Source: Bacteroidota bacterium
GTDB taxonomy: Bacteria > Bacteroidota > Bacteroidia > AKYH767-A > 2013-40CM-41-45
Length of the DNA stretch: 64,000 nt
Direction: 5' to 3'
NCBI GenBank assembly: GCA_031417395.1
Contig: JANOVM010000036.1
Span: 56,956-120,955 of the forward strand
The translations under genes and the position numbers were made by a program. The notes beneath the pieces were generated by a model. That model did not search any database. It saw nothing but the letters and a program-made list of their open reading frames with translations, and was not told where the DNA came from. Numbering within the stretch: position 1 is the stretch's first letter; each line of letters opens with the position of its first letter. Positions 659-34,653 of this stretch are shown here, piece after piece.

Positions 659-1528
659 TTAATCACCCCAGTTTAATGTCCACTGCAACCCTTTGACAAA
701 CGTCGGTAAAGATGTATCCATATGTAAAAGGTTTGAATAGATGTCGCCTTTGAAATTAATTTTATTATTTTCCTTCAATGATTTTGAAAGCGATGAAAGT
801 ACGATATTTGTTTTTAACTGTGTTGAGTCTTCTTCCTCTTCGTCTTCGAGTCCGCCGAAAGTGATATACGATTTTATATTAGTCTGATTGTTTTCCGTTA
901 ATTTTTCAAATTCTTTAAGTATGTAGTTATGATTGTAGTCTGTAGAGGGACTAGCTCCAATATAACCATGGAACATCGTGTTTTTATTTAAAAGACTTTG
1001 CTGCATTGCATAGAGCGTAAAATATCCTCCTAAGGAATGTCCCATTAAAATTCTTTTACTTTTATCAACCCTGTATTTAGAATCATTGTCCGGAATGAGT
1101 TCGTTATTAATAAACGATAAAAATTTATCTGCTCCGCCGCTCAAGCTCATTTCATATTCCGGAATGGCAATGGGGAAAGTGAAATCTCTGCTTCGCAAGG
1201 AGTCCATTGATTGCATATCTTTATAGCCGATACCAACTAATATAGCAGGAGGAAGCAAGCCGACCTCTGAATAATTTTTAAATATTGTAGCAACAATATC
1301 AAAGTACAAATTCGCGTCCAGGAGATAGACTATGGGATATGTTTCTTTTGTGGCAGAATAGTAATCATTCGGCAGGCTAATAGATATATCAAAGGTGTCA
1401 TTAACTGATGTGGAATAAAATTTAATGCTATTCTTTAAGTTAGTATTTTTATCATTATTATTTTCTTTTACTTCTCTGCATCCGAAAAGGAGAATTAATA
1501 ATGTTAGTGTGGGAAGTGTAATTTTCAT
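659..1528 (-). CDS. alpha/beta-hydrolase fold esterase (putative esterase family), lipoprotein
   Basis: Lipoprotein-like signal (LLFGC) and GHSLGG nucleophile-elbow motif. Paralogous to the 11804..12964 product. Confidence 0.65.
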   Translation of the reverse strand: MKITLPTLTLLILLFGCREVKENNNDKNTNLKNSIKFYSTSVNDTFDISISLPNDYYSATKETYPIVYLLDANLYFDIVATIFKNYSEVGLLPPAILVGIGYKDMQSMDSLRSRDFTFPIAIPEYEMSLSGGADKFLSFINNELIPDNDSKYRVDKSKRILMGHSLGGYFTLYAMQQSLLNKNTMFHGYIGASPSTDYNHNYILKEFEKLTENNQTNIKSYITFGGLEDEEEEDSTQLKTNIVLSSLSKSLKENNKINFKGDIYSNLLHMDTSLPTFVKGLQWTLNWGD

Positions 1529-1651
1529 ATATGTTCAGGGCGATAGGTTTTTATAAATTTAATTAAGCAATCAAAAATAGTTAATTTATTTATTTATTTA
1601 TTATTTGAAGTATTTAGCATAACCAACTATTATTTTATTTAAAGGAAGTTT

Positions 1652-2183
1652 ATTATCTGCAATTAACTTTGCCTTATATCCATTATGATTGTAAACCTTA
1701 TAACCTTAGTAACAAGAATCAACTCCCCACGAACTAACCTTATTACCTTTCTGAAAGTATACTATCATAAAAATTGAACACAACAACCATTGCACCAATT
1801 TTATTTTAATCAACCCTAGCTCGATATTGGAAAAAATTTAAAGAAGAGTATGATGCGTTAAACAGGAATTATAGAAGAGGAATAAAATAGGAATAAGGTA
1901 ATAAGGTCTTTATTGGTTATTCTGTTTTGTTACTAAGGTAATAAGGTCTTATATTCCTTAAATAATCGATGGTTTACACTAACATCCAAAATTTGAAACA
2001 TTTGCCATCTAAGGAAATATTTTATCTGCAATTAACTTTGCCTTATATCCATGATGATTGTAAACCTTATTACCTTAGTAACAAGAATCAACTCCCCACG
2101 AACTAACCTTATTACCTTATTGAAAGTATACTATCATGAAAGTTGAATACAATAACCATTGCACTCATTTTATTTTAATCAAT
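1652..2183. repeat. Paired-box repeat cluster, locus 1: two ~160 bp direct copies (1652-1812, 2021-2183; ~93% identical) flanking an inverted partial copy
   Basis: The 12-mer CCTTATTACCTT and its complement AAGGTAATAAGG occur as three pairs at about 1696/1737, 1895/1936 and 2066/2107. Each pair has 41 bp spacing and sits next to TAGTAACAA. Confidence 0.6.
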
Positions 2184-2283
2184 AGTAAAGAATTGAAAAA
2201 TAAAATTGATCTAAAATTTCAAAAACCATTACCATTTGCAGTATAATCTTAGCTTAGTAGCCTTAATATTTGTATTGAGTTTG

Positions 2284-3570
2284 TTATTTGAAAATACTAA
2301 ATAATCCCCAGTAAAAAAATAAAACCAGCAAAACAGAATAAGCAATATTGTTTAACGTGAAAAGCCATTTTGAAAAGCTGCGCCAATTGTGTTCTTTGAA
2401 CAATCTGAAGTTTGTTATTAATAAGGGAATAATAAGCAGTAAAAGAAGGAAAGGAATGTATGCAGCAATGTTCAGCATGGAGAATTTATAGTCCTTATAA
2501 GGGGCTGGAAAATAGAAAATGTAGCGATTTCTTGCTAGAACATATAGATAATATAGCATGATGAAACCCAATGGAACTAATAATAGTTTTATTTTATTTT
2601 TAGTTCTCAAATAACTGAAAAGAAAAAATAAGGCTGAAAATGTAAACAAACCTGCGCAAAATAGCAGAAACAGCATTATTGCAATACTATTCTGAGGAAT
2701 TTTGTAATTAATTAACTTTTCAAATTCTGCATTTTGTGGAAACAGATTTGTAATATTCAAAAGGTGGTTTCCTTTTGCCAATTCATCTTTTAAATTAAAT
2801 TGAACGACACGACTGTAATCGTGATAAAAATAAAGAAAAGTTTTACCATCGTTCAGGTACCAGATAGAAGTAAGCAATGTGCCATCGCCAATTTTCTTCC
2901 TGCACACATGCATTGTATCTGATAATGCTGTGCAAAAGGCAAGGCTTGTATCAATTTTGTTTTTAAGAAAATTTACTCCATTTCTATAACGATTTAATTT
3001 AAGAGCATCTGATTCCTTAGTGTTGGATGGGCAGAAATTTGATAAAACATATTTGGCATTGTTATCAAAATGCATTGTATTTGACTCGACAATTAAACAC
3101 TTGCCTGATTTTTCAATATAAATAAAAACATCTTCTATGAAATAAGAATGATCAAAGTTATTTATGTAATCATATACATCCTTGGTGGTTTTGCATTTAT
3201 GTAAAATGTCTTTTAAGTATTGAGTTGGATTGGAAATTATCTTTTTGTTTGAACTAACGCTTAATACTTTTTCCGGGGGAGGCGCTGCAAGTCTGGAAAA
3301 TGTAAGTCCAAATTCATTCATTCCTGATTGAGGAGCGTAACCATTAGCTCCATCAAATCTTCCACCTGTAAAAACTGCACCATATTCTTCTGACTTTTCT
3401 TTGTTTTCGAACCATATCACCGGTGTCAAATAGTAAGCATCAAAGTTTGTACCGACCATTGTTTTTTCGTTCACCGTTACTTTGTACATGCTGCATGAAA
3501 TGGCTTCATCAGCAATAAGAAGCATAGCGATTATTGCAAAGAAAGTTGTAAGAGAAATTAACTTATTCAT
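2284..3570 (-). CDS. Ntn-hydrolase-like protein (choloylglycine hydrolase / linear amide C-N hydrolase type) with C-terminal transmembrane segments
   Basis: Signal peptide followed by ...AISC|SMYKV, where Cys could be the N-terminal nucleophile after cleavage. C-terminal ~110 aa are strongly hydrophobic (3-4 TM helices). Family call is from motif recollection only. Confidence 0.4.
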   Translation of the reverse strand: MNKLISLTTFFAIIAMLLIADEAISCSMYKVTVNEKTMVGTNFDAYYLTPVIWFENKEKSEEYGAVFTGGRFDGANGYAPQSGMNEFGLTFSRLAAPPPEKVLSVSSNKKIISNPTQYLKDILHKCKTTKDVYDYINNFDHSYFIEDVFIYIEKSGKCLIVESNTMHFDNNAKYVLSNFCPSNTKESDALKLNRYRNGVNFLKNKIDTSLAFCTALSDTMHVCRKKIGDGTLLTSIWYLNDGKTFLYFYHDYSRVVQFNLKDELAKGNHLLNITNLFPQNAEFEKLINYKIPQNSIAIMLFLLFCAGLFTFSALFFLFSYLRTKNKIKLLLVPLGFIMLYYLYVLARNRYIFYFPAPYKDYKFSMLNIAAYIPFLLLLLIIPLLITNFRLFKEHNWRSFSKWLFTLNNIAYSVLLVLFFYWGLFSIFK

Positions 3571-4209: not shown

Positions 4210-5556
4210 TTAACGGTTTACTATTATTTTTCTTGTTGTTATGCCAAGTTTTGTTTTAATGTAAACTATGTATAAGCCGTTAACATCAAGGTTTAAGATT
4301 GTCGAATTTTCCGTTGTTTGATTTTTTATTATTTGTTTTCCAAACATGTCTGTGACTATTATTTCCGCAAAGTCAGTAAAAAGATCAATTTTAAATTCTC
4401 CGGTAGAAGGATTCGGATAAATAGAAAACAAATTATTTTCTTCCATGTTTTTATCTATACTTGAAATTATTCCTGTAGTGGTTCCCTGAAAATAAAGCGA
4501 TAACGGAAAATTTCCCTGTTGTCCGGTAAATACTGCTGCCGGAACACGGATTAAAAATGTGTGATTACCGGCAGTAACAGGACCCAGATTAATTCTTCTT
4601 ATATCTATTACATCTCCCGGACACCAATTACTAAATGATTGCCACTGAGCGCTGGATTTAGCCGATGGGCCATAAATTCCATTAGCCTGGGTATTGTATT
4701 GGCGGAATGGCTCACAGGTCGGACGCCCCGGCCTGTAGGAAAGAACTAAAGAACTATCAAAATAGGCGTAATGCCATCTTCTAATGTATTCTTCACCACC
4801 GGTATTTGAACCATGATTGGATGTAATGAGAAAAAAGGCAGCGTCTGTTAAATTATTGGGAACATTAAACGATATGGTCTTTGTTGTTTTTCCAATAGTG
4901 TCAGTCGCATCGGTCTGATAGTTATTGAAATTGTTTTTAAAGAATAAGGGTATCAAAACATTTGTATTTTGAGGAAGAGCAGAGGCGTTTGTTACAAATT
5001 CCAGTTTCCCCATAAAGACATCGTTACGTCCGGAGCAGCCGGCCACTTGTGTTTGAGCAGCGTATGGAACTCCAAATAAAGACAGCTCGATCCATATATC
5101 AAAATTATTTGTTATGGCAGTATCTTTCAAAAGCATGGCAACATTGTCTACATTAAAAGTAAAAGGAACTGAATCAGGTTGAATGTTTTTATTCATAAAA
5201 GGAGTAATAAATCTTCCAAGTTCAATGCGCTGCACGCTATCCGGAGTATATGTCGCAGAACCGATGGGAACTAAAGCCATATTCACATTTCCAATCCTGT
5301 CATAATTATCACATAATGCTTTAATGGTAACATTCATCTGCAAAGTAGTACCGATGGAAAGAAGTTCAGTGCTTGTCAGTTTTCTTGCAAATAAATCATT
5401 TGAATGTTTTATTACGCCGGCAGGCGGAGGAGGATTGGTGACAAATGCAGCATAACCATCAAAATAAATAATACTATCCATTACGGTAATGGTTGTTTGT
5501 GCTGTAGAATGTATTACAGCAAATGCAAATGTCAGTAGTAATAAATATTTTTTCAT
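4210..5556 (-). CDS. PNGase F-like (peptide-N4-(N-acetyl-beta-glucosaminyl)asparagine amidase F family) secreted protein with T9SS C-terminal sorting domain
   Basis: Signal peptide. ELGRFITPF, NHGSNTGGEEYIRRWHY and NWCPGDVIDIRRINL resemble the EIGRFITPY, GWGHAKP...AEWCFRTH and NWAPDRAGWCPG segments of Elizabethkingia PNGase F (compared from memory). C-terminal IYPNPSTGEF...IVNR matches the T9SS type-A CTD pattern. Confidence 0.55.
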   Translation of the reverse strand: MKKYLLLLTFAFAVIHSTAQTTITVMDSIIYFDGYAAFVTNPPPPAGVIKHSNDLFARKLTSTELLSIGTTLQMNVTIKALCDNYDRIGNVNMALVPIGSATYTPDSVQRIELGRFITPFMNKNIQPDSVPFTFNVDNVAMLLKDTAITNNFDIWIELSLFGVPYAAQTQVAGCSGRNDVFMGKLEFVTNASALPQNTNVLIPLFFKNNFNNYQTDATDTIGKTTKTISFNVPNNLTDAAFFLITSNHGSNTGGEEYIRRWHYAYFDSSLVLSYRPGRPTCEPFRQYNTQANGIYGPSAKSSAQWQSFSNWCPGDVIDIRRINLGPVTAGNHTFLIRVPAAVFTGQQGNFPLSLYFQGTTTGIISSIDKNMEENNLFSIYPNPSTGEFKIDLFTDFAEIIVTDMFGKQIIKNQTTENSTILNLDVNGLYIVYIKTKLGITTRKIIVNR

Positions 5557-5875: not shown

Positions 5876-6076
5876 AATTTTGATTAATCAAATAGTAATA
5901 GTCGTAATCATTAGAGGATCATGTGGTCGTCAAGAATATACGCAAACTGTAATTTTCCTAGTTTCAATTACCTCACCTCAAATATAGTAAAAACAAACCT
6001 ACTATTGATTCATAAAATTCTAATTTTTAACGATAATATATCATCGGGTATAAGCATTTCAGTACCGGAAACCATA

Positions 6077-6523
6077 TTATTTTGCCAGATTAATTAATTC
6101 TCTTTCCAACCGATCAAAGTTTTCTTCATTTTTGGGAATTACAAATCGTTTGATTTTTTCACATTCTTCGGCGGTATTGAAAATCATTCTAAAAGATATT
6201 TTAGACTTTGAATCATTGATGTATGCAAATTCCACTTCCATATCGAATATTGGCTGAGAGACCCTTTTCCAGGAAATTAATTTGTTGGGCAAAACTGTTT
6301 TAAATATAGATGAGTTTTCGTAATGACCATTTTCCGGTCCATGCATAGTCAAAGTCCGCTTTCCTTCAGGCCGTAAGTCAAATTCATGAATAGTATTTGT
6401 AAATCCTTCAGGTCCCCACCAGCTTTGTAAATGCAATGGATTAGCAAAAGCATTATAAACTGACTCTACAGATGCATTTACTATTCTTGAACTGTATATT
6501 TTATAATCGGGATTGGAATTCAT
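6077..6523 (-). CDS. SRPBCC-superfamily protein (AHSA1 / activator of Hsp90 ATPase homolog-like)
   Basis: 148 aa. SWWGPEGF...TLTMHGPENGHYEN pattern typical of the AHSA1-like SRPBCC family. Confidence 0.5.
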   Translation of the reverse strand: MNSNPDYKIYSSRIVNASVESVYNAFANPLHLQSWWGPEGFTNTIHEFDLRPEGKRTLTMHGPENGHYENSSIFKTVLPNKLISWKRVSQPIFDMEVEFAYINDSKSKISFRMIFNTAEECEKIKRFVIPKNEENFDRLERELINLAK

Positions 6524-25575: not shown

Positions 25576-27549
25576 CTAATGTTTAACTATCAACTTAGAT
25601 ATAACTTCTGAATTATCGGATTCAATTATTCTGACAGTATATAATCCGGCAGCGAATTTAGCAGTATTTATTGTATAGGATTCCGAACGGAAAGTGTTTT
25701 TGAAAACTTCTTTTCCAAAAACATCTGTAACAATAAGCTTTCTGGTGTTCTGGTCTTTAAAAAATAACTGACATTTTTCATTCGATGGATTAGGATAAAT
25801 ATTCATTAAGGAAGAATTATTTTCCGTTTTGGAAATGGAAAGGAACATGTCAACCGTATTCACTGTCTTATTCGTATAAATCGGAGGATTGAAATCAAAA
25901 TAAATGGAGGCTGAATTCTGAATCTGTGTTAAATGTGCAACGTTGTTATTTTGTTTGATTCTGTAAGTAACGTAACCATGACTTGCAGGTTCATTGGCAT
26001 TACTGTCGAGGAGCATAATATTGTCGTAGTTAAAGCGAATAATATTTCCTGTAAGAATAGACCAATGCATGGTATGGCTTGTAGCAATAACTTCCAAAGA
26101 AGTTGGATCAAGGCTTGCATCAAGGGTATCGAGGATATAAATATTAATCGCTTCAGCATTTCCTGTATTCTGGAAACGTATGGTATAGGTTAGGTCTGTA
26201 TTCGGACGAATAGCTCCCTGTCCTCCATCGCCTGAAGGAATTACATACTTATCATTCGGATCCCAGGAATTTCTGACAGGAAAACAAAACGTTTGTGTGT
26301 TATTGGAAGGAATTGAATCTCCTAAAACCGGTGTAAGGTTCATGGTGATACATATACTATCTCCTATTTGTGCATTGGTTGCAACTGTAACAGGAATGCA
26401 GAATGACCAATTTAAATCAGGACTGCTTATTGGTAATGTAACCGTTTGTCCGGTGATTGTATAGCCAATTCCTGTCGTATCCGGTAGTGGTGTCAAATCA
26501 GGATCAAGTATTATTTCTATCTGACCGTTTGGTGTATTGCAAAATTGATTGTAAGCATAAATGCATACGCTTGTTGTAAATCCCGGACGGAATCCCCAGC
26601 CGCTTACAAAACCCTGAAGGTCAAATCCCGGCGGACAAGTAAGTCCGAAATCATTTCCGGAGGAAGGAAGCGAACTTACGCTAATACTTCCCGATGGTGG
26701 ACAGGTAGAAGTAAGATGATAATAATATCCTCCCAGAGTATTAACCTGAATGGTATAGCTTGGACCTGTAGGTACGTTAAAAGAATAAACTCCGTTTGAA
26801 TCAGAACTTGCCCAGCCTACTACGGTGCTTCCATCATAAATAGTGAGAGAAACATAAGGCAATAGTATATCACCGGCATCGTAAATACAATTGTTATTTA
26901 TGTCCTGGTAAATAGTTCCTGTTATACTTCCGCATGTAGCTCCAACTATAATTGGATTGGCATTCATTGTATCGGCAGCTAAATCAGGGCCTGTTACTAT
27001 AAGTTGAGGATTGTAATTTCCTGCATTGGTATAAATATGAGTAACCATTCCATAAAAAGATGAATTAGCAGTTGATTGATAAAAAGTGCTGTCTGTTCCA
27101 TCACCAAAAATAAAATTGAATTTTATGGAATCGGTTGGCAGGTAACCGAAAGCACCACCGGAAAAATAGAAGTCTTCAGAAGCAGGTGTCGTACAAAAAT
27201 AGTACAGGGAATCATCGAAATACTGTATGACCACACCCGGTGCTACATTTAATGAAACTGCAACAGTAGAAGAGTCTGTACAACCTAAGCCATCACTTAT
27301 AGTTAGGCTTACATAATACACGCCACCTGCAACGTAAGTATGTGTTGGATTTGGAAGATTAGAGCTGCTTCCATCACCAAAACTCCATTGGTAAGTTAAT
27401 GGTTGAGATCCCGTAGAGGTATTAACAAATGAAATAACTGCAGGCACAGCAGGTCCTCCGGAATAAGTAAATGAAGCGACACATTGAGCCCTAAGTTCAC
27501 CGGCTAGTAGCAAGAGGGCGAATAAGGAAAGAAGTAGATTTTTTTTCAT
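25576..27549 (-). CDS. T9SS-sorted adhesin-like protein, tandem paralog of 23425..25398 (657 aa)
   Basis: Same domain order and identical length. Large blocks are identical (DINNNCIYDAGDILLP, NSWDPNDKYV, IRFQNTGNAEA, HGYV.Y.IKQNNNVAHLTQIQNSASIYFDFN). Confidence 0.6.
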   Translation of the reverse strand: MKKNLLLSLFALLLLAGELRAQCVASFTYSGGPAVPAVISFVNTSTGSQPLTYQWSFGDGSSSNLPNPTHTYVAGGVYYVSLTISDGLGCTDSSTVAVSLNVAPGVVIQYFDDSLYYFCTTPASEDFYFSGGAFGYLPTDSIKFNFIFGDGTDSTFYQSTANSSFYGMVTHIYTNAGNYNPQLIVTGPDLAADTMNANPIIVGATCGSITGTIYQDINNNCIYDAGDILLPYVSLTIYDGSTVVGWASSDSNGVYSFNVPTGPSYTIQVNTLGGYYYHLTSTCPPSGSISVSSLPSSGNDFGLTCPPGFDLQGFVSGWGFRPGFTTSVCIYAYNQFCNTPNGQIEIILDPDLTPLPDTTGIGYTITGQTVTLPISSPDLNWSFCIPVTVATNAQIGDSICITMNLTPVLGDSIPSNNTQTFCFPVRNSWDPNDKYVIPSGDGGQGAIRPNTDLTYTIRFQNTGNAEAINIYILDTLDASLDPTSLEVIATSHTMHWSILTGNIIRFNYDNIMLLDSNANEPASHGYVTYRIKQNNNVAHLTQIQNSASIYFDFNPPIYTNKTVNTVDMFLSISKTENNSSLMNIYPNPSNEKCQLFFKDQNTRKLIVTDVFGKEVFKNTFRSESYTINTAKFAAGLYTVRIIESDNSEVISKLIVKH

Positions 27550-27733: not shown

Positions 27734-30418
27734 TTATTCCACAACAAACTTACCGATATAATTGGTACGCTCATTTTTCATAGTGATAAAATACATTCCC
27801 GGTTTTAATCCTGAAATATTTAATCTAAAGTCTGAAGTGGTAACAACAAAAGCAGGCATTACATTTTTGCCTGTTACATCGGTAACCCGGAATGTGTTTT
27901 TGCCTTTTACTTTATCCGTTAATGAAACATAAATTTCGTCGTGTGCAGGATTTGGATATAGTTTCAGTTGAAAATTATTTTCAGCAAGTTCATCGATGCC
28001 AATAAGATGTTTACAGGGAAAACTGTCTGATTCGAAGAAATGTTTAATACGCATAACCTGTTCACGATTGACAGCGAATGATGTTAATTGTCCATTTGGA
28101 AAATTTGGTTCCCGAGTATATACATAGGCATAGTCGATTGAACGTATTCCATTTGCAGGAAGATTAAATGGTCCGGAGGAAACATTAGAGCGCCTGTCGG
28201 AAGGAGTGTTTGGACTACAGCCCGTACAAGGATGATATTCAGACCAGCCTGATGTATCATAAGGGTTTCCACTGTACATGTATTGAGTATAGTCTGTTGA
28301 TGATGGATTATAACCGTTTCCTCCATAGGTCAACGGTACACTATCTTTCCAGATTCCATTCATTCGAAAATAAAATTGTTGTGCAGTATAAGGGTTCCCT
28401 ACAACAGTAAAGTCATTATTGGATGAAATGAAATAATTCAACATGCAATTTTCACCCACTTCATCGGTTACCCCATTGTGATTATTATCGAGACCATCGT
28501 TTGGAACCGGTTCCGGTCCTTTTAGTAAAGCGAGATTAATCATAGGCGGGTGTAAACCATAGCCCCTGTCATCTTCATGAGGAAGTGGATTTAAAGAATC
28601 ATCGTCATCGCCATTTAAAGCAAATGCTATATCAAGAGTTGTATCACAGCCAACAAAATCATCTAAAGAAATTCCCAGATCAACATCTGTGTAAACACCA
28701 ATATAGACATCATGATAATCCGTATCGCTTCTATTAATAAAATCATAATGATAGAAGGTTGTATAATTAATAACAGTATCGGTGCCTGACAAAGCCGGGC
28801 AGTTGTAAGCATATGCCGATCCGTGAATTTCTACGCCTAGATTATATTGTGCATTGGTTTCAGAATGATTGGATCTATTATCATTAAAAACCCACCAAAG
28901 CATCTGGTCGCCTTTCATGTCCGGATAATCGCCGTCATAAGGATTGTAAACTCCATCCAGATTATGGTCTATAAAAGGAGCCAACTTTCGCGAATAATTA
29001 CCGCTTCCATGGGCAGGCCAGTTTAAAATTATGGAAGGGATAGTATAGCTTCCATTCGCTACAGATCCATCCTGAAATTTCGAAATGAATTCATTTACCG
29101 TATAGCGTTCAATTTTCCATAATCGGTCATACTGTTGAAATGCACCCGGATTAATGGTAGCATCCGTTGTATCCAACGGTCCCGGCCAGAAGTCATTTCC
29201 GCTTTGCCTGTATGTTTGAGCAGCAAGGTGTAATTTTCCCTGCTGATCTTTTCCGCCAATCCATAATCCTTCGGCAAAAATCGATGATTTGCCAGAGCCT
29301 TTCGGGACTTCGTAAAGAGGGTTTCCTGTTAAATCATAAAACATACTTCCATTATTCCATACTCTTGCCTGAACCTGGTTAATATCCAGGTAAGGACATG
29401 TATCGGGTTGAAGAGCCGGAGAAATTCCATTTATGTTTAACTTATAAATATCGGATGAGTTTTCTGCAAAGATCAGTTCTCCTAAACTATTGTAGTCAAA
29501 CAAATCGACAGAGTCATTGGCAAGAGCTGCAGAATAGGGGCCTTGAATAGGGTAGGCATTGCTTAAAGAATTTTGAGAATTAAATTCAAGCAGGTATAAA
29601 TCATTGAGATTAGAATAATTGGAAACGGCGAATGTCTTATTTGGATCAGTAGCTCCTAAAAAATTAATTGGTTGTACAACGAGATTGTTGAACAAGCACG
29701 GATTGGATTGCATTCTTATTTTTTGAAAAACCGTATCCTTGATTTGATAATTGTATGAATAAATATTCTGGTTTTGATCGGAAGTTAATCTGTAAACAGG
29801 TGAAATATTCGGTGAAGTACCTTTCCATCCCGTGGAGGTTAGGACATTAATTCCTTTGCTGTCTGAAATGTATACACCAAAGGTGTTTTCAGCAAAACAT
29901 AAAACTGTATCCGATTGCAAGGGCGAATTGGCTGTATTAAAAATTACAAAAGAAGAACCATTAATCGAAACAGCACCTCTGTCTGTTGCCACCCAAAGTG
30001 TAGTATCGCTCACAAATAAATTTAAAATGTTATTCGAAGGAAGGGGAGTGTTTAGTGTATTATAGGTAGTCAGATTTAATCCGTCCGTTTTAAACAGACT
30101 ATTATTAGTTCCTATCCATTTTATATTACCCTGAAAAGCAATAGAGCTTACATTATTGGATGGAAGTCCGTTGGTGTCATTATAATATTTCCACGATGTT
30201 CCATCGTATTCCGTTACTCCGTAATTTTTATACCCCGTCCAAATATGATCATCCGGCGAAACACGAATTACCCTCTTTGTATTATTTGGATTAGGCATCA
30301 ATCCGGGAGGATACGGAAGCGTAGTTATTTGAGCAAACAAATTAGTGCTTACAAGAAAGAGAAGGGAAAGTAGCGTTGTTTTCATACGTTGAATTTTAAT
30401 AAAGATAAGAGTTTCCAA
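27734..30418 (-). CDS. large T9SS-sorted secreted protein with N-terminal two-component-regulator-propeller-like repeats, 894 aa
   Basis: Signal peptide. Repeated ...W.GT..GL..YDG motifs. C-terminal LKLYPNPAHDEIYVSL...GKFVVE CTD. Confidence 0.5.
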   Translation of the reverse strand: METLIFIKIQRMKTTLLSLLFLVSTNLFAQITTLPYPPGLMPNPNNTKRVIRVSPDDHIWTGYKNYGVTEYDGTSWKYYNDTNGLPSNNVSSIAFQGNIKWIGTNNSLFKTDGLNLTTYNTLNTPLPSNNILNLFVSDTTLWVATDRGAVSINGSSFVIFNTANSPLQSDTVLCFAENTFGVYISDSKGINVLTSTGWKGTSPNISPVYRLTSDQNQNIYSYNYQIKDTVFQKIRMQSNPCLFNNLVVQPINFLGATDPNKTFAVSNYSNLNDLYLLEFNSQNSLSNAYPIQGPYSAALANDSVDLFDYNSLGELIFAENSSDIYKLNINGISPALQPDTCPYLDINQVQARVWNNGSMFYDLTGNPLYEVPKGSGKSSIFAEGLWIGGKDQQGKLHLAAQTYRQSGNDFWPGPLDTTDATINPGAFQQYDRLWKIERYTVNEFISKFQDGSVANGSYTIPSIILNWPAHGSGNYSRKLAPFIDHNLDGVYNPYDGDYPDMKGDQMLWWVFNDNRSNHSETNAQYNLGVEIHGSAYAYNCPALSGTDTVINYTTFYHYDFINRSDTDYHDVYIGVYTDVDLGISLDDFVGCDTTLDIAFALNGDDDDSLNPLPHEDDRGYGLHPPMINLALLKGPEPVPNDGLDNNHNGVTDEVGENCMLNYFISSNNDFTVVGNPYTAQQFYFRMNGIWKDSVPLTYGGNGYNPSSTDYTQYMYSGNPYDTSGWSEYHPCTGCSPNTPSDRRSNVSSGPFNLPANGIRSIDYAYVYTREPNFPNGQLTSFAVNREQVMRIKHFFESDSFPCKHLIGIDELAENNFQLKLYPNPAHDEIYVSLTDKVKGKNTFRVTDVTGKNVMPAFVVTTSDFRLNISGLKPGMYFITMKNERTNYIGKFVVE

Positions 30419-30625
30419 TTAATAAGCGGGAAAGTCTATAAATAAATTGAAATTCACTATGAAATTTGTTTTAAAAGGTCACGTATTTGTAAACTCATCA
30501 TCACCTTTGAATGTAAAATGAATTTTCGAAAAAAATTATTTTCAAATATTTTTTGATAAATTGGAATTTATAAAATCATAAATTCGTTATAATTAATGTA
30601 GTTTTGGATTATTTCGGTTCATAAA

Positions 30626-31100
30626 ACCTTATTACCTTAGTAAAAAGACATAATATCACCATAGATTACCTTATTACCTTATTTCCCATTTTATTCCTCT
30701 GTGATAATGCTTGATTAAGTCATCATTCTCTTCTTTAATTGTTTTTTTTTCTTGTTGTGTTCGGATTGATTAAAGTAAAATGAGTGCAATGGTCGTCGTA
30801 TTCAATTTTAATAATTGGATACTTTTAATTTGGCAATAAGGTAATAAGGTAAGTTTATTGGGATCTGATTTTTGTTGCTAAGGTAATAAGGTTTACAATC
30901 GCCATGAATTTAAGACTCAGTTCGTCGTAAATAATAAACTTTTTAAAATAAGGTTGTCGTATTCAATTTTTAAAATAGGATACTTTTAATTTGGCAATAA
31001 GGTAATAAGGTAAGTTTATTGGGATCTGATTTTTGTTACTAAGGTAATAAGGTTTACAATCGCCATGAATGTAAGACTCGGTTCGTCGTAAATAATAAAC
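30626..31100. repeat. Paired-box repeat cluster, locus 2: one forward box pair (30627/30668) plus two direct ~150 bp copies (30790-30950, 30960-31100) each carrying an inverse box pair
   Basis: CCTTATTACCTT at 30627 and 30668. AAGGTAATAAGG at 30838/30880 and 31007/31049, spacing 41-42 bp. Same TAGTAAnAA / TTGTTnCTAAGG flanks as locus 1. Confidence 0.6.
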
Positions 31101-31234: not shown

Positions 31235-31999
31235 CTAATTACCCTTCTCCGTCAACCCCGCCACCAAATACTCCCTGTTCAATCGTGCAATATGTGAAAT
31301 CGAAATCTCTTTCGGACATTCAGCCTCACAAGCTCCCGTATTTGTGCAGGCTCCAAAGCCGGCTTCATCATGGGCTTTTACCATTTTAAGAACACGGGTA
31401 TGTCGTTCAGGAGCTCCCTGTGGAAGTAAAGAGAATTGAGAAACTTTTGCTGATAAAAAAAGCATTGCAGAGGCATTTTTACAGGCAGCAACACAAGCAC
31501 CGCAACCTATACAGGCAGCAGCATCGAAAGCTTCGTCAGCTTTTGCTTTTTCAATGGGAATACTATTTGCATCAACTGCATTACCGGTATTAACAGAAAT
31601 ATAACCACCTGCCTGAATGATCTTGTCAAAAGCACTGCGGTTTACTACTAGGTCTTTAATTACAGGAAAAGCTGCAGCTCTCCAGGGTTCAATGGTTACT
31701 GTTTCTCCATTGGCGAAATGACGCATATGAAGCTGACACGTTGTTGTACCTTTAAGCATGCCGTGTGCGCGACCGTTAATATACATACTGCACATGCCGC
31801 AAATTCCTTCTCTGCAATCGTGATCAAAAGCCACAGGCTCTTTTCCTTCGCGTATTAATTTTTCATTCAATACATCAAGCATTTCCAGAAAAGACATGTG
31901 CGTACTCACGCCTTGCATGTCATAAAATTCAAAACGTCCGGCAGTAGAAGCATTCTTCTGGCGCCAGATTTTGAGTTTGAGGTTGATTGTTTCGGACAT
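31235..31999 (-). CDS. sdhB: succinate dehydrogenase / fumarate reductase iron-sulfur subunit
   Basis: [11 protein letters not shown] and [11 protein letters not shown] Fe-S cluster motifs. Follows sdhA. Confidence 0.9.
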
Positions 32000-32016
32000 T
32001 TTTTTTAATTCTCAAA

Positions 32017-33936
32017 TTATTTATACGATCGCTGCGTCGGATGCACAACATCAAACTGCAGTGGTTCTTTATTTAATTGTGCCGGCTGATCTTCGCCGTT
32101 AAATTCCCACGCTGCAACGAAGCTGAAGTTATCGTCGTCGCGTTTGGCTTCGCCGTCTTCTGTTTGTGATTCTTCACGGAAATGTCCGCCGCACGATTCA
32201 CGACGCATAAGTGCATCGGTAATCATTAGCTCACCCAGTTCAATGAAATCTGCAACGCGACCGGCTTTATCTAATTCGGGATTAAATTCATTTGTATCAC
32301 CCGGAATCTTAACATCACTCCAGAATTCTTTTTTAAGATCCTTTACCATCTGAAGCGCTTTTGTAAGGCCGGCTTCATTTCTTGCCATGCCGCAATAATC
32401 CCAAATAATTCTTCCGAGTTTTTTATGCAGCTCTTCAACAGATTGTTTACCGTTGATGGTTTTTAATTTATTGATTCTGTCGGTTGCATTTTTTTCTGCT
32501 TCTTCGAATGCAGGATGTGTGGTCGGAATAGCAGGTACACGTATTTCATCTGCTAAATAATCCCCTATAGTATACGGTATAACGAAATATCCATCTGCAA
32601 GTCCTTGCATAAGCGCTGAAGCACCCAGACGGTTGGCGCCATGATCGCTGAAGTTACATTCTCCTAAAGCATACAATCCGGGAATCGTAGTCATCAGGTT
32701 GTAATCTACCCACAACCCACCCATGGTATAATGTACTGCAGGATAAATACGCATTGGCGTTTTGTAAGGATCATCGCCTGTAATTTTAGCATACATTTCA
32801 AAAAGGTTTCCGTAACGCTCGCTTATTACATGTCGGCCGAGACGGTTTATACTATCGCGAAAGTCGAGATAAACAGCAAGTCCGGAAGGACCAACTCCAC
32901 GACCTTCATCACACGCTTGCTTAGCAGCGCGGGAAGCAACATCGCGCGGAACAAGGTTTCCAAAAGCAGGATATCTTCTTTCTAAATAATAATCGCGTTC
33001 TTCATCGGGAATATCTTCGGGTTTTCTTTTATCACCGATTTCTTTAGGAACCCATACTCTTCCATCGTTACGTAAACTTTCACTCATGAGCGTAAGCTTC
33101 GATTGATAATCTCCTGAAACAGGAATACAAGTAGGGTGTATTTGTGTGAAGCAGGGATTACCGAAAAAAGCGCCTTGCTTATATGCTTTCCAGATTGCAG
33201 TTGTATTAGAACCCATGGCATTGGTGGAAAGGTAAAACACATTTCCGTAACCGCCGGTTGCAAGAATAACTGCATGACCAAAATGGCGCTCCATCTTTCC
33301 TGTAACAAGATCACGTACAATAAGGCCGCGTGCTTTGCCATCGATTTTTACGAGGTCAACCATTTCATGACGGTTGTACATTTTTAAATTTCCTTTAGCA
33401 ACTTGGCGTGATAAAGCACTGTAAGCTCCAAGTAGCAATTGTTGTCCGGTTTGTCCGCGTGCGTAAAATGTTCGTGATACCTGCACACCGCCGAATGAAC
33501 GGTTGTCCAGAAGTCCACCGTATTCGCGTGCAAAAGTAACCCCTTGTGCTACACACTGATCAATGATCGATGTACTTATTTCAGCAAGTCGGTAAACATT
33601 GGCTTCACGTGAACGATAATCGCCGCCTTTAACGGTATCGTAAAAAAGTCTGTAAACACTATCGCCATCGTTTGAATAATTCTTTGCTGCATTGATTCCT
33701 CCCTGAGCTGCAATACTGTGCGCTCTGCGTGGACTATCCTGAAAACAAAAGCATTTTACGGAATAGCCAAGTTCTGCAAGACTTGCTGCTGCAGATCCTC
33801 CGGCAAGACCTGAACCTACAACAAGGATTTCAATTTTCCTTTTGTTTGCAGGGTTAACCAGTTTAACAGTCGATTTATACTTACTCCACTTCGTTTCAAG
33901 ATCGCCTTCGGGAATATTGGAATTCAATTTATTCAT
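32017..33936 (-). CDS. sdhA: succinate dehydrogenase / fumarate reductase flavoprotein subunit
   Basis: N-terminal [23 protein letters not shown]-binding fold. 639 aa. Confidence 0.9.
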
Positions 33937-33969
33937 AGGATTTATTTATCGATGGAAAGATCTTATATA

Positions 33970-34653
33970 TTAATGTTGAAGGATGTTGGTTGCAACACCA
34001 AAAAAATCAAAGTAAAACATGATAGGAAATGAAGCAAAGCCAACCATGAAAATTAGTGAAAGAACTGTTCCCATAGCTTTGATCGAACTTCTGTACTTCA
34101 TATTGTTTACTCCAAGTGTCTGTAGAGCCGATTGAAAGCCGTGATTGAGGTGGGCACCCAGTAATACCATTGATACTAAATAAAATGCAGCATACCAATT
34201 TGATTGAAACGCTGTAGCGACATCCTGTGCCATCGTTGTCTCCGGTGCACCAAACCTGTGCGGGAAAAAGAACGTACGCAGGTGAATAACAAGAAAGACT
34301 AGAATAATAGTGCCTGTGAGGCCCATATTCCTGGAAAACCAGCTGCTGTTTTGTCCTTGGTGGCTCATTGAATAATTTATGGGTCTTGCTTTTCTATTAC
34401 TTAGAGTAAGGAAAAGAGCATCAATAATATGAATGATAATGCCTGCAAAAAGTACATATTCAATGGTTCGGATAATTAAATTATTTACAAGAAAATCTCC
34501 GTAACTGATAAAGGATTCTCCACCATCCATTTTATACAGCAAAAGATTTCCGTATAAATGCTCGAGAAGAAAAACGACTAGAAAAAGGCCTGTTAAAGCC
34601 ATCACCAATTTACGCCCAACAGTGGTGTAAAACATTTTGAAAGCAGCAATCAT
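33970..34653 (-). CDS. sdhC: succinate dehydrogenase cytochrome b subunit (b558-type, Bacteroidota fumarate reductase FrdC-like)
   Basis: 227 aa polytopic membrane protein with conserved His in helices. First gene of the sdhCAB operon. Confidence 0.7.
   Translation of the reverse strand: MIAAFKMFYTTVGRKLVMALTGLFLVVFLLEHLYGNLLLYKMDGGESFISYGDFLVNNLIIRTIEYVLFAGIIIHIIDALFLTLSNRKARPINYSMSHQGQNSSWFSRNMGLTGTIILVFLVIHLRTFFFPHRFGAPETTMAQDVATAFQSNWYAAFYLVSMVLLGAHLNHGFQSALQTLGVNNMKYRSSIKAMGTVLSLIFMVGFASFPIMFYFDFFGVATNILQH

Follow-up and report, generated by a model that had tools for sequence, protein, structure and literature searches.

A canonical REP is an imperfect palindrome of 20-40 nt with 5' GT[AG]G at the foot of the hairpin. 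Recognition and cleavage of single-stranded DNA (ssDNA), with cut-and-rejoin chemistry, are established for TnpA of IS608 and ISDra2 and for E. coli TnpA(REP). Such repeats are known from the REP/RAYT systems, with their REPtrons, REPINs and BIMEs (Nunvar 2010; Bertels & Rainey 2011; Ton-Hoang 2012; class 2 of Quentin 2018). Subclass 1.2 of the TnpA_Y1 proteins is described by Quentin et al. 2018 (BMC Genomics 19:475, PMC6006769) as proteins of about 148 aa with the Y---Q--HH and WQ motifs, the HuH motif (E/D)H(V/L/A)H and some 30 conserved residues at the C-terminus, distributed in Bacteroidetes and Cyanobacteria at low copy number. The subclass is given there as “REP: no” and without IS200-type terminal structures, and it “does not share IS properties”; the REP search of that study required GT[AG]G and a GC-rich hairpin (PMC6006769).

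Here we analyse paired boxes in a 64-kb stretch of DNA of a Bacteroidota bacterium (64,000 nucleotides, the window) and their relatives in other genomes. Probably, the paired boxes are the ends of a small mobile-element family in Bacteroidota, and the copies in the window are its gene-less relics. The full element would consist of a ~148-codon gene of a Y1 HUH (IS200-like) single-strand DNA transposase placed between inverted sets of boxes. In function the box system is comparable to REP/RAYT (REPIN) systems, or else to IS200-type elements accompanied by MITEs; both kinds, REP/RAYT and IS200-derived MITEs, are already known.

The 64-kb window contains 12 matches to AAGGTAATAAGG at no more than one mismatch, versus a mean of 0.46 and a maximum of 3 in dinucleotide shuffles, and all of them are confined to two intergenic loci (1696-2118 and 30627-31052). 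At both loci the boxes are paired, 40-42 bp apart. The 12-mer box pairs in direct and inverted arrangement, with which the original prediction started, are thus real. The boxes are built as tandem octamers, AATAAGGT-AATAAGGT or ACTAAGGT-AATAAGGT, with the 14-mer TAAGGTAATAAGGT as their phylum-wide conserved core. The gap of 755 bp between two minus-strand ORFs, reported for locus 1 from the start, is confirmed. The boxes and their surroundings are as follows:

659-1528, minus strand: esterase-like gene, left neighbour of the locus 1 gap
1529-2283: intergenic gap of locus 1, 755 bp
1696-1707, minus strand: AAGGTAATAAGG box with one substitution
1738-1749, minus strand: AAGGTAATAAGG box
1895-1906, plus strand: AAGGTAATAAGG box
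1935-1946, plus strand: AAGGTAATAAGG box
2065-2076, minus strand: AAGGTAATAAGG box
2107-2118, minus strand: AAGGTAATAAGG box
2284-3570, minus strand: unannotated 428-aa ORF, right neighbour of the locus 1 gap
30627-31052: locus 2 with six further boxes

From start to start, the paired boxes are 42, 40 and 42 bp apart at locus 1 and 42, 42 and 42 bp apart at locus 2. The spacing of 40 or 42 in the window, and of 37-52 among units from many genomes, is a preferred one and not the fixed 41 bp proposed before. The six units of the window align as two types. Four of them belong to type I (1642-1813 and 2011-2182 on the minus strand, ~30790-30940 and ~30950-31100 on the plus strand) and two to type II (~1850-1990 on the plus strand and ~30560-30720 on the minus strand). 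Common to both types are only the two boxes and TTGTTAC ahead of the second box. The inverted repeat predicted as ~21 bp long is perfect: 1927-1947 and 2064-2084 are 100% complementary over 21 nt, and their arms lie 116 nt apart. The predicted direct repeats also exist, with ~160 bp and 93% identity corrected to 172 nt and 92% (1642-1813 versus 2011-2182), but they are not box-pair units; they are two copies of a left end, each with the stub of a transposase N-terminus.

The pattern AAGGTNNTAAGGT-N22-38-TAAGGTNNTAAGGT was scanned over 185,579 species genomes and gave at least 117 loci, of which, among the matches listed, nearly all are in Bacteroidota or Ignavibacteria. Chitinophagales, Cytophagales, Sphingobacteriales, Flavobacteriales, Bacteroidales and Saprospiraceae are the Bacteroidota groups among these matches, and copy numbers per genome are lower bounds (at least). 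Simple octamer microsatellites, frequent false positives of the pattern, were filtered out, which left 124 paired-box units at 81 loci among the matches listed. The spacing in these units ranges from 37 to 52 with the mode at 40-42. Hence, a genome-wide search, as suggested originally, does find the boxes elsewhere, without a constant periodicity of 41-42 bp. Conserved in the 124 units are only AAT-AAGGTAATAAGGT-T and (t)tgTTAC-TAAGGTAATAAGGT-T, and neither the flanks nor the spacer between the boxes show conservation among the matches listed.

The boxes are linked to one gene. Among the 118 ORFs flanking the loci listed, Y1_Tnp is the sole recurrent small Pfam family. At the same loci tblastn detected 9 intact and 2 frameshifted genes of ~148 codons between box pairs, together with many short stubs. 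In the intact copies one or two inverted boxes are located just 5' of the ATG (8-25 nt before it for the two-box ends), and one or two direct boxes are located at the 3' end. The first of the direct boxes overlaps the stop codon, where TGG GAA ATA AGG TAA TAA encodes W E I R and two stops (…KWEIR-stop). All intact box-first copies except that at locus L066 are flanked by boxes in inverted orientation, and lineage-specific sequence of 55-130 nt extends beyond the boxes on each side of the element.

The opposite approach started from the protein. With nine aligned proteins as the query, more than 438 relatives were retrieved from metagenome contigs, and the best 80 of them were examined. In this sample (best 80 of >438) an inverted box is found no more than 200 nt upstream in 64 of 72 loci, a direct box downstream in 68 of 76, and boxes on both sides in 56 of 68. 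The offsets are stereotyped, -68/-27 and -4/+36 in two-box lineages and -26/+25 in one-box lineages. The box-gene association holds in both directions, box-first and protein-first. As read from the sequences, the boxes form the left end (LE) and the right end (RE) of an element whose gene specifies a 148-aa Y1 HUH transposase (Pfam Y1_Tnp). This supports their assignment as recognition-type sequences of a DNA recombinase. The hint of a recombinase target in the original prediction is supported by the boxes flanking the Y1 HUH transposase gene in many Bacteroidota, and its advice to look for a MITE-mobilising transposase pointed to the right answer. Of the serine or tyrosine recombinases that it also considered, no invertase was found among the neighbouring genes tested.

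The protein is 146-148 aa long and scores 58-75 bits with PF01797 (cutoff 23). With NF033573 (NCBIfam IS200) the scores are 44-63 bits versus a cutoff of 55, passed by one of four proteins. With NF047646 (TnpA(REP)/RAYT) the best score is 20.8 bits versus a cutoff of 80, and three of four proteins have no match, which makes the protein, unlike those of REP/RAYT systems, a member of class 1 (IS200-like) and not a TnpA(REP). Its PDB relatives are ISDra2 TnpA and IS608 TnpA. In the 9-sequence alignment the catalytic residues H55 and H57 (HUH), Y115 and Q119 are invariant, as are H122 and H123 of the Y motif KYI(L/M/R)NQP(E/D)HH, as well as W95 and Q96. The C-terminal tail is conserved (E131, Y132…F135…Y139, Q140…W145). 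Judged by the published signatures, the proteins of the intact loci match TnpA_Y1 subclass 1.2 in their 148 aa, YILNQPEHH, WQ, HuH motif, C-terminal tail, Bacteroidetes hosts and apparently low copy number. Unlike in the published description of the subclass (“REP: no”), the Bacteroidota members are flanked by conserved inverted boxes, and gene-less copies are dispersed. The boxes are without the GT[AG]G and the GC-rich hairpin required by the REP search of Quentin 2018. The family comprises 4637 clusters at E<=1e-10, most of them on 1-3 contigs, and many of its members carry in IMG the generic COG name “REP element-mobilizing transposase RayT”.

Since the boxes flank intact copies of the transposase gene across Bacteroidota, the window locus is best read as decayed mobile DNA, ordinary, and not as a genetic switch. 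The window appears to contain nothing but relics: two mini-elements with an internal deletion and two left ends that stand alone. The sequence 5' of the type II inner box translates to the C-terminus of the transposase, and the reverse complement of the corresponding type I region translates to its N-terminus, MKVEYNNHCTHFILIN… (tblastn). N- or C-terminal stubs exceed the null thresholds in all six window units. The segment 1695-1947 reads as one internally deleted element made of LE boxes, residues ~1-20, residues ~128-144 and RE boxes; with its extensions, this mini-element 1 spans about 1574-2010. The features are as follows:

1574-1694, plus strand: left-end terminal extension of mini-element 1, outside the boxes, colinear with the corresponding region of L031 and L061 and with the flank of the solo left end at locus 2; left limit approximate
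1695-1715, minus strand: putative LE outer box with 5' TTGTTAC (TTGTTAC-TAAGGTTATAAGGT, one substitution)
1737-1750, minus strand: putative LE inner box, AAAGGTAATAAGGT
1767-1826, plus strand: transposase N-terminus stub IKIEHNNHCTNFILINPSSI, residues 1-20 (tblastn; score 49 versus 31 for the 99.5th percentile of the null), with the start codon mutated to ATA
1837-1890, plus strand: transposase C-terminus stub FKEEYDALNRNYRRGIK with its stop, residues 128-144 (tblastn; score 43, null threshold 35); L012 and locus 2 are colinear with it
1894-1907, plus strand: putative RE inner box TAAGGTAATAAGGT, which overlaps the stop codon in intact genes
1927-1947, plus strand: putative RE outer box with TTGTTAC on its 5' side; it forms one of the two arms of the 21-bp inverted repeat
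1948-2010, plus strand: terminal extension on the right side of mini-element 1; the right ends of locus 2, L012, L031 and L061 are colinear with it; right limit approximate
2011-2195, plus strand: second, partial left end of locus 1, a direct repeat of 1642-1813 (92%), with no right end after it
2064-2077, minus strand: outer box of this left end
2106-2119, minus strand: inner box of this left end
2136-2195: N-terminal stub of this left end, MKVEYNNHCTHFILINSKEL (stub score 67)
30626-30892, minus strand: mini-element 2, whose gene remnant is on this strand (tblastn, stub scores, colinearity)
30626-30639: RE outer box of mini-element 2
30668-30681: RE inner box of mini-element 2
30677-30780: C-terminal stub of mini-element 2, …EKKTIKEENDDLIKHYHRGIKWEIR with its stop (tblastn E=4e-5)
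30759-30812: N-terminal stub of mini-element 2
30837-30850: LE inner box of mini-element 2
30879-30892: LE outer box of mini-element 2
30920-31053, minus strand: second solo left end, at locus 2, with a left extension running to about 31190
30920-30973, minus strand: N-terminal stub of this left end
30998-31011, plus strand: inner box of this left end
31040-31053, plus strand: outer box of this left end

Loci 1 and 2 of the window and loci L012, L031 and L061 are colinear across the deletion junction and for 55-130 nt past the outer boxes. The junction is common to both mini-elements and to at least three copies in another MAG, and the neighbouring genes are unrelated among the loci that have it. 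A junction common to the mini-elements and to the copies of another genome shows spread after the deletion; both mini-elements descend from one deleted progenitor, multiplied afterwards like MITEs or REPINs. Mini-elements 1 and 2 are roughly three-quarters identical in alignment. The window copies have diverged and therefore give no sign of recent activity here. The 64-kb window contains no intact transposase gene; mobilisation in trans is thus only presumed for this organism.

Multicopy gene-less derivatives are present within single genomes. In the box-first sample, among the matches listed, more box-pair units stand without a gene at their side than next to an intact one, and 89 of 120 units are without a detectable coding stub. 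A divergent partner box is found within 120 nt in 40 of 114 units listed, most often 12-18 nt away. The four-box inverted doublets are 125-160 bp long, and doublets fold back as ssDNA (z=-3.2 for window positions 1690-1952, z=-7.6 for locus L003). Gene-less elements of 297-400 bp are multicopy in single MAGs. Two copies in CALCIK01 (L015:6962-7258 and L029:3754-4050), each of 297 bp, are 95.6% identical in unrelated flanks and end in 11-bp terminal inverted repeats, TATTCCCTTTA / TAAAGGGAATA; no target-site duplication was found at this one pair examined. Multicopy gene-less elements occur also in DASRAJ01, JAYVAI01, JAYURB01 and CAXUMK01.

This organisation is like that of REP/RAYT systems in several respects. 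A Y1 HUH transposase gene, apparently of low copy number, is flanked by short repeats in inverted orientation. Gene-less extragenic copies are dispersed, often as fold-back inverted doublets and in alternating clusters, as at window locus 1 and at L040 and L062; at the latter two loci boxes of alternating orientation surround the gene and resemble REPtrons or BIMEs. The conserved tetranucleotide YTAC (GTAR on the other strand) adjoins the repeat 5' of the box. However, the box is an AT-rich tandem direct octamer with a marginal hairpin, whereas REPs are GC-rich palindromes. Across orders the 14-mer does not vary, whereas REPs as a rule belong to one species or genus. The mobile units of 300-480 bp with lineage-specific ends are also more MITE-like than REPs of 20-40 nt.

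With IS200/IS605 elements (IS200, IS608, ISDra2) the family has in common the homologous transposase with the invariant HUH/Y/Q catalytic set, full copies of ~0.7 kb, internally deleted non-autonomous copies and, in the one pair examined, no target-site duplication. Unlike in IS200/IS605 elements, where the ends are not inverted and both subterminal hairpins are on the same strand, the boxes are inverted at the two ends, and one lineage (L015, L029) has the 11-bp terminal inverted repeats. High-identity multicopy full-length elements were seen in neither the box-first nor the protein-first sample.

These likenesses raise the alternative that the boxes belong to ordinary IS200-type insertion sequences decaying in place, where each relic is a separate full-length insertion, with no copies mobilised in trans and no REP-like population. 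It would account for a protein closest to class 1 (IS200/IS605), with its NF033573 scores of 44-63 bits and its ISDra2 and IS608 relatives in the PDB, and for the coding stubs on gene-adjacent units, which are expected from deletion of full-length copies. We consider it unlikely. One deletion junction recurs at unrelated loci of the window and in at least three copies in another MAG; the gene-less elements of 297-400 bp are multicopy in single MAGs; and among the matches listed the 89 of 120 units without a stub and the excess of gene-less units over those with an intact gene are not what separate full-length insertions would leave. The complete genome CP015971 encodes the exact protein P0024 only once, between degenerate boxes, and the inverted element ends differ from those of IS200/IS605.

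Hence we return to a family of mobile elements with gene-less copies mobilised in trans, and suggest the following scheme. A transposase encoded elsewhere in the genome would recognise the boxes on ssDNA, and it would have mobilised the non-autonomous copies in trans. Two substrates are candidates: a weak TTGTTAC/TAAG/GTAATAA hairpin and a fold-back between the inverted LE and RE boxes. By analogy, the cut-and-rejoin chemistry would be that of IS608/ISDra2 TnpA and E. coli TnpA(REP). A pairing signal is present 5' of the outer box, with a mean stem of 4.7 on the box strand and 3.5 on the other strand versus 0.86 in the null, and it is on the box strand only that a G·T wobble lets the 5' arm t-t-g-T-T-A-C pair with GTAATAA. 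This strand asymmetry supports a single-strand substrate, as expected for HUH enzymes. Together with the spacing of 37-52, it leaves the dimeric DNA-binding protein proposed for the boxes, read as a binder of duplex DNA, without support. The local hairpin of the outer box, at -1.5 kcal/mol, is no better than in shuffles.

A host function is very improbable as the primary role of the boxes, whether as operators bound by a transcription factor or in an RNA with UAAGGU repeats, small RNA or protein sponge, with the transposase link being secondary. The invariance of the 14-mer across orders would fit it, as would the position of the locus 1 LE 165 nt from the esterase gene and of the locus 2 RE 239 nt from a T9SS-cargo gene. 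However, among the matches listed no consistent downstream gene or gene function was found, the distances are scattered and the units are often between convergent genes, which argues against an operator or promoter role. Also in favour of a host function, a sigma-70-like TTGTTA-16-TACAAT overlaps the outer box in the lineage of the window. It spans the outer LE box at 1688-1715 and 2057-2084 on the minus strand and at 31033-31060 on the plus strand and points out of the element. This motif could drive outward transcription, with the reservation that it is of sigma-70-like consensus and the primary promoter consensus in Bacteroidota differs from the sigma-70 type. The total of promoter-like sites is not above shuffles, and across the phylum no conserved promoter element keeps a constant distance, TTGTTA-16-TACAAT being lineage-specific.

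The reading as RNA fares no better. The Rfam search recommended in the original prediction gave no meaningful match: with Rfam 15 there was none at the gathering score in the window, and in 1500-2300 a limit as loose as E=10 brought up only chance-level matches with E>=3. A search of the window for tRNA and tmRNA was negative, and no terminators were found. RNA folds are no better than shuffles on either strand in 7 of 8 window units, the sole exception being unit L1c on the minus strand (z=-3.2), nor in any of the four sequences of the Saprospiraceae arrays described below.

The idea that the 21-bp inverted repeats are crossover sites of an invertase flipping the 116-bp segment between them has very little left in its favour. 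The perfect repeat on which it is based consists of two element ends that face each other, an outer RE box and the outer LE box belonging to a partial second copy; the 14-mer occurs across the phylum in every orientation combination and often between convergent genes; and no serine or tyrosine invertase is present among the neighbours tested. In fimS or the PS-promoter switches of Bacteroides the inverted repeats bracket a promoter, and a cognate invertase gene is nearby; in the segment here no promoter is conserved or bracketed as a cassette.

Three further candidates were considered and rejected. A Ter-like replication-terminator site was considered for TTGTTACTAAGGT, which resembles the Ter cores of E. 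coli and B. subtilis; it was dropped, as neighbouring units can have opposite orientations and are accounted for by the link to the transposase. A transcription-factor regulon does not fit the scattered gene distances, the convergent-gene settings and the unrelated functions of flanking genes. CRISPR-like or iteron arrays were set aside for repeats of 14-19 nt that are associated with the Y1 gene.

What would be new, if the mobile-element reading is right, concerns the subclass. We find it quite possible, if somewhat short of probable, that subclass 1.2 has in the TAAGGTAATAAGGT boxes the cognate repeats it had long been lacking. An IS200-like (class 1) transposase of Bacteroidota would then maintain REPIN-like doublets and mini-elements independently of the class 2 RAYTs, via a non-palindromic AT-rich tandem-octamer site which is invariant across orders and partly locked by encoding the C-terminus and the stop codon. 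The boxes and their link to subclass 1.2 were not found in the literature searched, and an exact-sequence search of the literature for the boxes gave only unrelated primer matches. If true, the proposal would provide a substrate for the subclass 1.2 Y1 transposases, described in 2018 without IS properties or REPs, and would mean that REP/REPIN-like systems arose from IS200-like transposases by a second route, independent of the first and with an unusual, non-palindromic recognition sequence. The recognition mode of the HUH enzyme would be directly testable on short oligonucleotides. For annotation, the family accounts for a recurrent intergenic repeat of Bacteroidota that can be mistaken for operators, sRNAs or switches. 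It is also a likely cause of assembly breaks, many gene-carrying contigs being only 1-2 kb long; many metagenome contigs with the Y1 gene are of 0.6-2 kb and end near the gene, as expected if the flanking repeats break assemblies.

Several repeat arrays were observed beside the paired boxes. The microsatellite (AAGGTAAT)n, with at least 12 copies, derives from the internal octamer of the box and is found at L008:390-491, where it directly adjoins a decayed Y1 gene, and at L105 ~4800-4850 (plus strand; reverse-strand match). This suggests that the expansion arose from the tandem octamer by replication slippage. In a Saprospiraceae MAG (L055:2833-3110 and L083:4004-4153) the box is amplified with its spacer into a tandem array of 43-45-nt units, with 6.4 copies and 89% matches at L055. 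CTAC or TTAC stands ahead of every box except the first in both arrays, and no Y1 stub was detected beside them. Long octamer arrays of the AAGGTNNT type are present at L009, L014 and L093 (Flavobacteriaceae MAG CAZSBI01), and also at L007/L022, L018 and L094 (Bacteroidales/Prevotella) and at L013, L036 and L088 (Psychrobacter). Their octamers, AAGGTATT, AAGGTGTT, AAGGTCTT and AAGGTGCT, match the search pattern and are not paired boxes.

Two distant paralogues of the transposase (35-39% identity, YVLNQESHHKK) are adjacent in Terrimonas pollutisoli (L039:4247-4642 and 5892-6230), the second one being apparently truncated. No TAAGGTAATAAGGT boxes were found on either side of them, and they may use a different repeat.

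Finally, the window contains three minus-strand genes with the C-terminal sorting domain of type IX secretion (Por_Secre_tail), at 4210-5556, 25576-27549 and 27734-30418, which place it in Bacteroidota. One of the three proteins is PNGase F-like. Locus 2 is situated between a Por_Secre_tail gene and the sdhCAB operon (31235-34653).
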